DNA of 64,000 bases, from contig OY771506.1 in assembly GCA_963674705.1 (NCBI GenBank), positions 2,688,001 through 2,752,000 of the forward strand, given 5' to 3'. Shown piece after piece: positions 1,137-5,067 of the stretch. The position numbers were made by a program, and so were the translations under genes. The notes beneath the pieces are model-generated. The model made no database searches and had not been told where the DNA came from. It worked only from the letters and a program-made list of their open reading frames with translations. Positions within the stretch are counted from its first letter, which is position 1, and each line of letters begins with the position of its first letter. Origin of the DNA: Phycisphaeraceae bacterium (GTDB lineage Bacteria; Planctomycetota; Phycisphaerae; Phycisphaerales; Phycisphaeraceae).

Positions 1137-1164
1137 TTGACCTGGCGGGGGTGTAGACGATAAT
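1137..1164 (+). promoter_or_regulatory. sigma70-type promoter for the downstream structured RNA
   Basis: TTGACC (1137-1142), 16 nt, GATAAT (1159-1164); same geometry as the TTGACA-N16-GATACT promoter at 52439-52466. Confidence 0.55.
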
Positions 1165-1167
1165 TAG

Positions 1168-1520
1168 GTTGTCGACCGAGCCTGCTGATAGTAAGCGAGA
1201 AAACCTCTCTGAATGTCAGTATGAGCGGAGTCGACCGAGCATCGGATCGTAGACCCCTGCGGCCGATGAGCGCGGTGCCCCGGTAAGACGTTACGGGGCG
1301 GAAAGACTCCGGCGGCCACGGGTCGTTCGCATACGGCAACGACACGAGATGGTGACGGCTGGGATTGGCTCTTTTCAGAATGGAGGTGATCCTTGGATAA
1401 CGACTGTATGAGCGTCTGGAGTGGGCTGCGTTAGGCAGCTCGACGGGGCTGTAGAGCAGCTCCCACTACCAGACCATCAAGCTATGCCCGCCCCGATGCG
1501 TTGGGGCGGGCTTATTTTTT
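1168..1520 (+). ncRNA. candidate structured non-coding RNA (~350 nt), family not identified
   Basis: Lies between a promoter and a terminator with no ORF of 60 aa or more on this strand. Nested helices: GGAGTC/GACTCC, CATCGG/CCGATG, GCCCCG/CGGGGC, GTCGTT/AACGAC, ACCTC-TCTGAA/TTCAGA-GAGGT, GTCTGG/CCAGAC, GCTGC/GCAGC, GGGGCTG/CAGCTCC. Confidence 0.6.
1486..1520 (+). terminator. intrinsic terminator
   Basis: GCCCGCCCCGA-TGCG-TTGGGGCGGGC hairpin followed by TTATTTTTT. Confidence 0.85.
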
Positions 1521-4330: not shown

Positions 4331-4484
4331 GTTGTTCCAATAGAAAGGAGCGACAGCGGTCACGCCCTAGATAGTTTGCATACTCAAACTCTTACTGCAC
4401 GAAAACCTCATTTTCAGGCGTGGCTGTGTTAATATATTTTCCGGGGTGATTCGTGGAAGGTTTTCGTGTGGTCGGAGTTTATCC

Positions 4485-4694
4485 ATGCCCAGCGATGTTC
4501 CCTTTTCACAGGTCAGAAAACTACTTGAATCACACGGATGGACATGTAGTCGGGTTCGCGGCTCGCATCATGTTTTCACCAAGGAAGGCGAAACGCCGAT
4601 TATTATTCCGGTCCATCGTCGAAAGGTGAAGTTTGGATATGTCCACCGGATCAAAAAACAACTCGAAGAAGAAGGCAAAGGGCAAGGCGATTGA
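4485..4694 (+). CDS. hicA: type II toxin, HicA family mRNA interferase
   Basis: 69 aa from ATG 4485: LLESHGW..RVRGSHHVF..IIPVH. Confidence 0.9.
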   Translation: MPSDVPFSQVRKLLESHGWTCSRVRGSHHVFTKEGETPIIIPVHRRKVKFGYVHRIKKQLEEEGKGQGD

Positions 4695-5067
4695 TGCGCC
4701 GTTTGACCCCAAGCTCTGGAAGCAGGCGGCCGAGATCGCTTCGACCTATCGTTTGATTATTGAGAAGGAGCCGGAGGTAGGGGGGTACCTGGGGCGTTCG
4801 GTGGAGATGCCGATGGTGATGTCGGATGGGCCGACGATCGCCAAGTGTGCGACCGAGACGCTTGAGGCGATGACGCTGGCAGTGGCGACGATGCTTGAAG
4901 ACGGGGAACGTCCGCCGATGTCCAGCAAAACTGAAAAACGCACGGCCCAGGTCAACGTGCGGTTGACCGAGGAAGAAAAACTTCGGTTGGAAGAGGCTGC
5001 CAAGCGGCAGGGGTTTCGGGGTATTTCGGATTACATCCGGTCGGCGGCGCTTAAAGAAGCAAGCTAA
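4639..5067 (+). CDS. hicB: HicB family antitoxin with C-terminal ribbon-helix-helix domain
   Basis: HicB-like GYLGRSVEMP..SDGPT..LEDGERPP, then QVNVRLTEEEK..SDYIR; overlaps hicA. Confidence 0.85.
   Translation: MSTGSKNNSKKKAKGKAIDAPFDPKLWKQAAEIASTYRLIIEKEPEVGGYLGRSVEMPMVMSDGPTIAKCATETLEAMTLAVATMLEDGERPPMSSKTEKRTAQVNVRLTEEEKLRLEEAAKRQGFRGISDYIRSAALKEAS

Follow-up and report, generated by a model that had tools for sequence, protein, structure and literature searches.

A stand-alone RNA gene upstream of dprA

Near the start of the window, a 64,000-nucleotide stretch of a Phycisphaeraceae bacterium (contig OY771506.1, positions 2,688,001 to 2,752,000), a short transcription unit lies between two protein-coding genes (Table 1). 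Upstream is a conserved ORF of 165 amino acids (487-984, + strand), which lies ahead of the RNA at most loci within the same family and gave no match in Pfam or NCBIfam; the downstream neighbour is dprA. The unit opens with a sigma-70-type promoter and closes with an intrinsic terminator, and in both respects our results bear out the first-pass annotation. Because one such promoter was found where 1.2 would be expected by chance, its weight rests on conservation, and the boxes are the same in all aligned homologues of the genus and in several other genera. Conservation in the genus alignment sets in with the GTCG at 1171, and a terminator-like hairpin is present for 95 of 122 homologues. The RNA gene is single-copy in the source genome. 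Elsewhere in the window (4446-5067, + strand) lies an ordinary toxin-antitoxin pair, made up of a HicA-type toxin gene and a partner whose DNA-binding end is NikA-like.

Table 1. Positions of the features of the RNA gene, counted from the first letter of the window.
Feature	Position	Strand	Details
Sigma-70-type promoter	1137-1164	+	-35 TTGACC 1137-1142, N16, -10 GATAAT 1159-1164
Predicted transcript, ~350 nt	1171-1520	+	5' end inferred 6 nt past the -10 box
P1, long variable 5' hairpin	1171-1235	+	Base helix 1171-76/1230-35; missing from compact homologues
P2, hairpin with 2x2 purine internal loop	1236-1272	+	RNAalifold; 64/64 and 32/32 cells paired
P3, hairpin with GACG loop 1287-1290	1277-1299	+	G-N-C-G loop in homologues
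P4, helix with GACG bulge 1354-1357 and variable distal arm	1308-1363	+	100% and 99.5% of cells paired; genus 72/72
Extended Shine-Dalgarno sequence, SD1	1377-1392	+	15/16 nt complementary to the genome's 16S 3' tail
13-codon ORF, UUG start, UAG stop	1393-1434	+	Reads MDNDCMSVWSGLR; frame kept in homologues
3' domain with P6	1414-1474	+	Last codons 1414-1429 paired with 1456-1474; covers SD2, encloses stop
Second SD-like tract, SD2	1417-1423	+	9-15 nt before the stop codon
P7, hairpin just past the stop, GACG loop 1442-1445	1436-1451	+	48/48 genus cells paired
Intrinsic terminator	1486-1520	+	

Seven of eight metatranscriptome runs, from six studies, held contigs of relatives (152-268 nt) that map to 1207-1487. 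We take these as a weak hint of expression, since the runs were picked for holding the stretch and the contigs show neither strand nor ends; none reaches a flanking gene, and this absence of flanking cover carries no weight as proof.

The element matched none of the Rfam covariance models, and ARAGORN detected no tRNA or tmRNA in it. With the tmRNA, RNase P and SRP RNA genes all located elsewhere in the same genome, these searches agree with the first-pass annotation, which had seen no signature of RNase P, tmRNA, SRP RNA or tRNA. Its suggestion of a divergent 6S-like RNA fared less well: the 6S model (RF00013) gave no score here, a better if sub-cut-off candidate lies elsewhere in the genome (G000:C1:3994574-3994692, - strand, L270; 36 bits, E 2.3e-5), and the comparative fold does not have the long rod with central bubble. 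The element is stand-alone and structured, as 6S RNA is, but unlike 6S RNA it carries an extended Shine-Dalgarno (SD) sequence and a mini-ORF. The Rhodopirellula-1 motif, proposed as a comparison, is likewise structured and from Planctomycetes, but it is described as a hairpin motif of 87-112 nt (PMC2864571), and its conserved letters, compared by eye only, are unrelated to those of the element. Overall, the first-pass annotation was right to see a conserved RNA gene that stands alone, is structured and falls outside Rfam. Its wording, a possibly undescribed non-coding RNA, went too far in two respects: the RNA carries an ORF, and its kind has already been described as the rre small mRNAs.

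Homologues and genomic context

By BLAST, nine of ten same-genus genomes contain the element (E 1e-45 or better), and fragments were found in other genera. A pattern scan of about a third of the genome_contigs collection yielded 120 loci; the 77 with a 9-42-codon ORF after the SD were kept and the 43 without such an ORF left out. The 77 were chosen by eye with the peptides in view, and the length rule yields an identical set. Of these, 75 are labelled planctomycete; the other two are labelled Chitinophagaceae, but their copies are planctomycete-like. Three weak matches (L040-L042) and L233 were left out for want of an SD. Viral contigs gave 11 pattern matches, none with an SD and mini-ORF, which we ascribe to chance, and a loose pattern run across 401 genomes of the phylum was set aside, its matches being mostly chance.

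A covariance model built on the compact form located the element in at least 32 of 151 genomes of the phylum and at least 11 of 41 of the class. Both counts are floors, since the model scored just 16-62 candidates per genome; detection at this level counts against the explanation that we favour below. Nearly all newly inspected model loci (23/24) carry an SD and mini-ORF. The homologue search suggested at the outset thus ended with 130 loci and 122 distinct homologues, nearly all planctomycete. One genome (G008) holds two differing copies (L010 and L212), either a paralogue or a mixed bin. The literature searched, outside which most subscription journals lie, held no planctomycete case of such an RNA.

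The position ahead of dprA recurs in seven loci of the genus and in two other genera. In a wider set of 48 loci, a rough frame heuristic gave a downstream ORF for 46, of which 21 are convergent; among downstream ORFs scanned, 31 of 45 had Pfam matches, spread over 27 kinds, and outside the genus dprA accounts for one of 45 downstream genes. As the genes that follow are varied and often convergent, the RNA is not a dprA leader, and the placement upstream of dprA emphasized in the first pass stands as local synteny but not as a general link. The same data bear on a leader-peptide attenuator acting on whichever gene follows, in this case dprA. A promoter, a short ORF and a terminator do precede dprA in the loci just named, and SD-like tracts are reported near the stops of attenuator leader peptides (PMC5737721), but the downstream genes are unrelated to one another and we found no conserved, functionally linked gene on the same strand. 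An attenuator is largely refuted and in our judgement very improbable. The specific case of a cysteine attenuator was rejected as well, the three PALP neighbours being serine/threonine dehydratase-like rather than cysteine synthases. In one family (L218:1896-3017 and L229:151-1584), the gene that immediately follows the RNA gene encodes a peptide release factor.

A conserved fold that includes codons

In folding energy the stretch beats all 100 shuffles, with z-scores of -5.42 with the terminator and -4.18 without. Across 49 compact homologues, the 34 named pairs are paired in 92.1% of cells versus 79.2% for shuffled and 36-53% for slid controls, and 26 of the 34 show double-sided changes. These statistics lean towards the structure, since the same alignments, and related ones, were used to draw it and related sequences do not count as independent. 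All eight pairs of P3 show double-sided changes, with 98.7% of cells paired (49 sequences), and no other helix is as conserved as P3 and P4. The P6 core, in which the Gly-Leu-Arg codons of the mini-ORF form a strand, has six of eight pairs with double-sided changes and 90.8% pairing. The base helix of P1 is paired in 46 of 48 genus cells, with nine double-sided changes. From these comparisons, the predicted core is P3, P4, P6 and P7, with P1 and P2 as additions in the source genus and some relatives.

Covarying helices, which the first-pass annotation had named as a check, were found, though in a fold that differs from its own. The window's minimum-energy fold (-161.2) is 6.6 kcal/mol lower than the comparative fold (-154.6) and includes one of the long-range helices listed in that annotation. 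Among eight same-genus homologues, however, its helix 1208-13/1374-79 is paired in 18 of 48 cells, 1203-07/1383-87 in 28 of 40, and the three-way-junction helix 1227-32/1305-10 in 28 of 48; all three can form on paper, but none is kept. For its closing helix 1168-73/1396-1401, the first three pairs fall upstream of the inferred start; the remaining three are paired in 23 of 24 same-genus cells but in 1 of 12 from other genera, with no double-sided changes. Helix 1414-19/1469-74 holds in the genus (44/48 cells) but not outside it (3/24), while the CATCGG/CCGATG and GCCCCG/CGGGGC helices are supported. The repeats that it listed are exact (1171/1230 and 1219/1406) but neither is kept in homologues, and the GTCGAC copy, also exact, is just the two arms of the palindromic P1 helix.

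Three GACG-type loops recur in this fold. The G, C and G of the P3 loop are invariant in 49/49 homologues, and the P7 loop letters, which lie outside every search pattern, are kept in 48-49 of 49; the invariance of the P4 bulge reflects how the sequences were selected, as the search pattern included it. In retroviruses, GACG tetraloops are reported as part of RNA-RNA linkage (PMC516450). The terminator loop (1495-1502) has an AUGCGU that is kept across the genus and in two other loci and is complementary to the GACG loops; a latch of this loop onto the GACG loops was rejected as a general feature, since terminator loops vary widely elsewhere and CGT occurs in 22 of 95. A UGUA/UAYR helix closing the 3' domain is suggestive, with both halves in 43 of 95 sequences, the 5' half alone in 27, the 3' half alone in 4 and neither in 21. 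Just before the terminator, a CCUACGG recurs in L165 and similar compact homologues and also fits the complement of 16S helix 45. In these compact homologues, it may pair instead with CUGUA in the ORF.

The conservation of P3 and P4 would suit a leader that senses a ligand or protein and gates SD1, with the mini-ORF and 3' domain as its output. The 3' strand of P4 resembles 16S rRNA beside the anti-SD, and it has the potential to base-pair with a UCCAG that precedes the start codon (ATCCAG in 28 and GTCCAG in 8 of 122 homologues), but this alternative pairing is missing in most homologues, the source genus included, and the element matches no Rfam riboswitch. A Downstream-peptide leader gating a short ORF provides a precedent (PMC2864571). 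With these points on either side, we rate such a switch as distinctly unlikely. The ligand of the Downstream-peptide leader is glutamine.

An extended Shine-Dalgarno sequence and a mini-ORF

The first-pass annotation saw about 350 nt with no normal ORF; a 13-codon ORF nevertheless lies directly behind SD1. The tract comprises 11 contiguous complementary nucleotides at 1382-1392 (GGAGGTGATCC) and four more matches beyond one mismatch, and is partly within a weak hairpin. Among the genome's 6008 sites with an SD core and start codon, it has the second-strongest duplex energy when the tail is taken to be 18 nt long; the 11-nt match as such is at chance level, with three sites in the genome. Across homologues, the contiguous match has a median of 12 nt and reaches at least 16 in 17 of 122, as measured against the source genome's 16S tail.

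The start codon lies 5-12 nt past the SD core throughout the homologues and is rarely AUG (GUG 83, UUG 25, AUG 14; non-AUG in 108/122), and in 112 of 122 the ORF spans 9-14 codons. A GAYTGTA motif is in frame 0 in 65/65, its distance to the start varying by whole codons, and the P6 motif is in frame 0 in 63/65. The cysteine codon is TGT in 88 homologues versus TGC in 2, despite a genome-wide TGC preference of 5312:3048, and cysteine is missing altogether from 32 of 122. Divergent homologues have the RNA layout in common, but not the peptide. Because of the TGT bias against genome preference, the cysteine-less copies and a layout kept without the peptide, the constraint inside the ORF acts on nucleotides, at the RNA level. 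In five loci (L016, L023, L036, L150 and L176), the mini-ORF has grown to 22-42 codons with cysteine clusters, and the long form of L016 is metallothionein-like.

An mRNA under tight control that encodes a functional small peptide, perhaps a thiol- or metal-binding Asp-Cys peptide whose output the folds merely tune, could be read from the kept frame, from the cysteine 6-10 residues from the end in 90 of 122 homologues and from the five cysteine-rich long forms; RreB and RreR are also reported as conserved in their own clades (PMC5711450). The nearly exclusive TGT, the Gly-Leu-Arg codons that double as the P6 strand, and the divergent homologues that keep the layout without the peptide all point the other way, and we regard a working peptide as unlikely. 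The opposite extreme, a non-coding RNA (a 30S sponge, a 6S-like RNA or a scaffold) with an incidental ORF, would account for the strong covarying structure and for nucleotide-level conservation within the ORF. It does not sit with the start-codon spacing and whole-codon indels seen throughout, nor with the 6S result and the presence of the 6S candidate, tmRNA, RNase P and SRP RNA elsewhere in the genome, and we consider it improbable.

A second Shine-Dalgarno-like tract before the stop codon

In a segment ending 8-9 nt before the stop, SD2 passes -3.4 kcal/mol with the anti-SD in 113 of 122 homologues, compared with 14% of the genome's 3451 long ORFs and 58 (maximum 69) after synonymous codon resampling. 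Its peak offset from the A site (-8/-9) is the same as that of SD1. When homologues are clustered on sequence outside the ORF, SD2 is held in 47 of 51 and 19 of 21 clusters. The codons that make up the tract specify Gly, Arg, Lys, Glu, Trp or Ser, yet positions -14 to -11 are 93-98% purine. Nine of the 122 homologues have a weak SD2 or none, and SD2 falls below -6 in just 2 of 10 long-ORF forms. Since the tract overlaps the 5' strand of P6, the needs of the helix account for part of its G-richness; one flanking position is paired in 71% of 73 homologues. The 23 divergent copies came via a model that included the SD2 region.

A mini-mRNA that may dock on the 30S subunit at two sites

By analogy with rre RNAs, we favour, with a rough probability of 0.55, a folded stand-alone mini-mRNA of the rre kind: SD1 would dock the 30S subunit, the 13 codons would be weakly translated and SD2 would re-grip at the stop, with the RNA rather than the peptide as the likely working part. 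The observations behind this reading are the RNA's own promoter and terminator, the conserved helices, SD1, the frame-kept mini-ORF and an SD2 in the register of SD1.

Extrapolating from rreB, SD1 would bind the 30S subunit tightly, and the long duplex and non-AUG start would slow initiation. An elongating ribosome would have to open P6, thereby freeing SD2, which could pair with the 16S tail once the stop codon is in the A site. When the subunits part, the RNA would then remain with the 30S subunit and might slide back to SD1; retention is expected because an SD 9-14 nt before the stop slowed mRNA release about 50-fold in an E. coli assay, an effect tied to subunit splitting (PMC5737721). Ribosome passage would toggle the 3' domain between closed and open and set RNA turnover, so that the RNA would gauge translation activity while resident on the ribosome. 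The three GACG-type loops would likely serve as tertiary or protein contacts that read out the 3' domain switch. If this holds, SD2 would be a natural SD tract kept before a stop codon without a downstream gene to couple or attenuate.

GACG tetraloops can kiss in a two-pair CG geometry. A bolder proposal, against which we place the odds, is a planctomycete-wide, ribosome-resident RNA machine in which the 5' leader and 3' domain would clasp, by CG-CG kissing of GACG loops, around a track of 9-14 codons with an SD anchor at each end and a single cycling 30S subunit. It would belong to the translation apparatus as a structured, regulatory RNA, forming a class apart from ordinary small-protein genes, with rre as a stripped-down cousin, and could act as a gauge or store of free 30S subunits or as a control on recycling.

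Comparison with rre small mRNAs and CC2171

The closest described counterparts of the mini-mRNA that we favour are rreB and rreR, two small alphaproteobacterial mRNAs reported in 2016, to which the available text of that report assigns no function (Hahn et al., RNA Biol 14:1353, PMC5711450). There, rreB binds 30S and is translated at a low level, and it decays faster when its start codon is present; trimming its match from 17 to 14 nt causes the RNA to leave the ribosome pellet, and overexpression leaves growth unaffected (PMC5711450). The planctomycete gene likewise has its own promoter and terminator in a gene context that varies across groups, a long 16S-tail match before a non-AUG start with the SD partly in a hairpin, and a small ORF directly after the SD, of 13 codons here compared with 14-18 in rre genes and about 14 in rreB (PMC5711450).

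In contrast to the 16-17 contiguous nucleotides to the 16S 3' end that typify rre, the window's SD1 has 11, or 15/16 with one mismatch, and the match ends at 1392 ahead of a UUG instead of running into the first base of GUG. It is weaker than that of rreB, with UGGAGG in place of AGGAGG (PMC5711450). Architecture differs as well: rreB is 165 nt long with 8 nt before its 17-nt match, whereas here the predicted transcript is ~350 nt, the start codon lies 228 nt past the -10 box, and a leader of about 205 nt that comprises P1-P4 (compact homologues: ~90 nt) takes the place of a very short one (PMC5711450). In the available text of the rre report, neither SD2, a codon-built P6 nor three GACG-type loops are described, and no Planctomycetes appear among the carriers (PMC5711450).

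Rfam family CC2171 (RF01867, a Caulobacter sRNA) has a consensus that opens with the same extended SD and GUG. Its model did not match the window at the gathering cut-off of 75 bits and scored 20-25 bits on compact homologues, via SD and terminator only. All 19 alphaproteobacterial CC2171 matches carry a short ORF of 21-32 codons after the extended SD, behind short leaders; SD2 passes in 7 of these 19 loci, which score at most 19 bits on the element's covariance model. The CC2171 matches L246-L263 and L243 are rre-type genes, in a family listed as a plain sRNA.

Overall, the planctomycete gene is best classed, by analogy, as an elaborated rre-type mini-mRNA, marked by its structured leader, a 3' domain built from codons and an SD at the stop, and presumably works in an rre-like manner. 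For rre-type RNAs, the element, itself absent from Rfam, supplies an alignment of 122 homologues, helices that covary and two SD tracts at precise positions.
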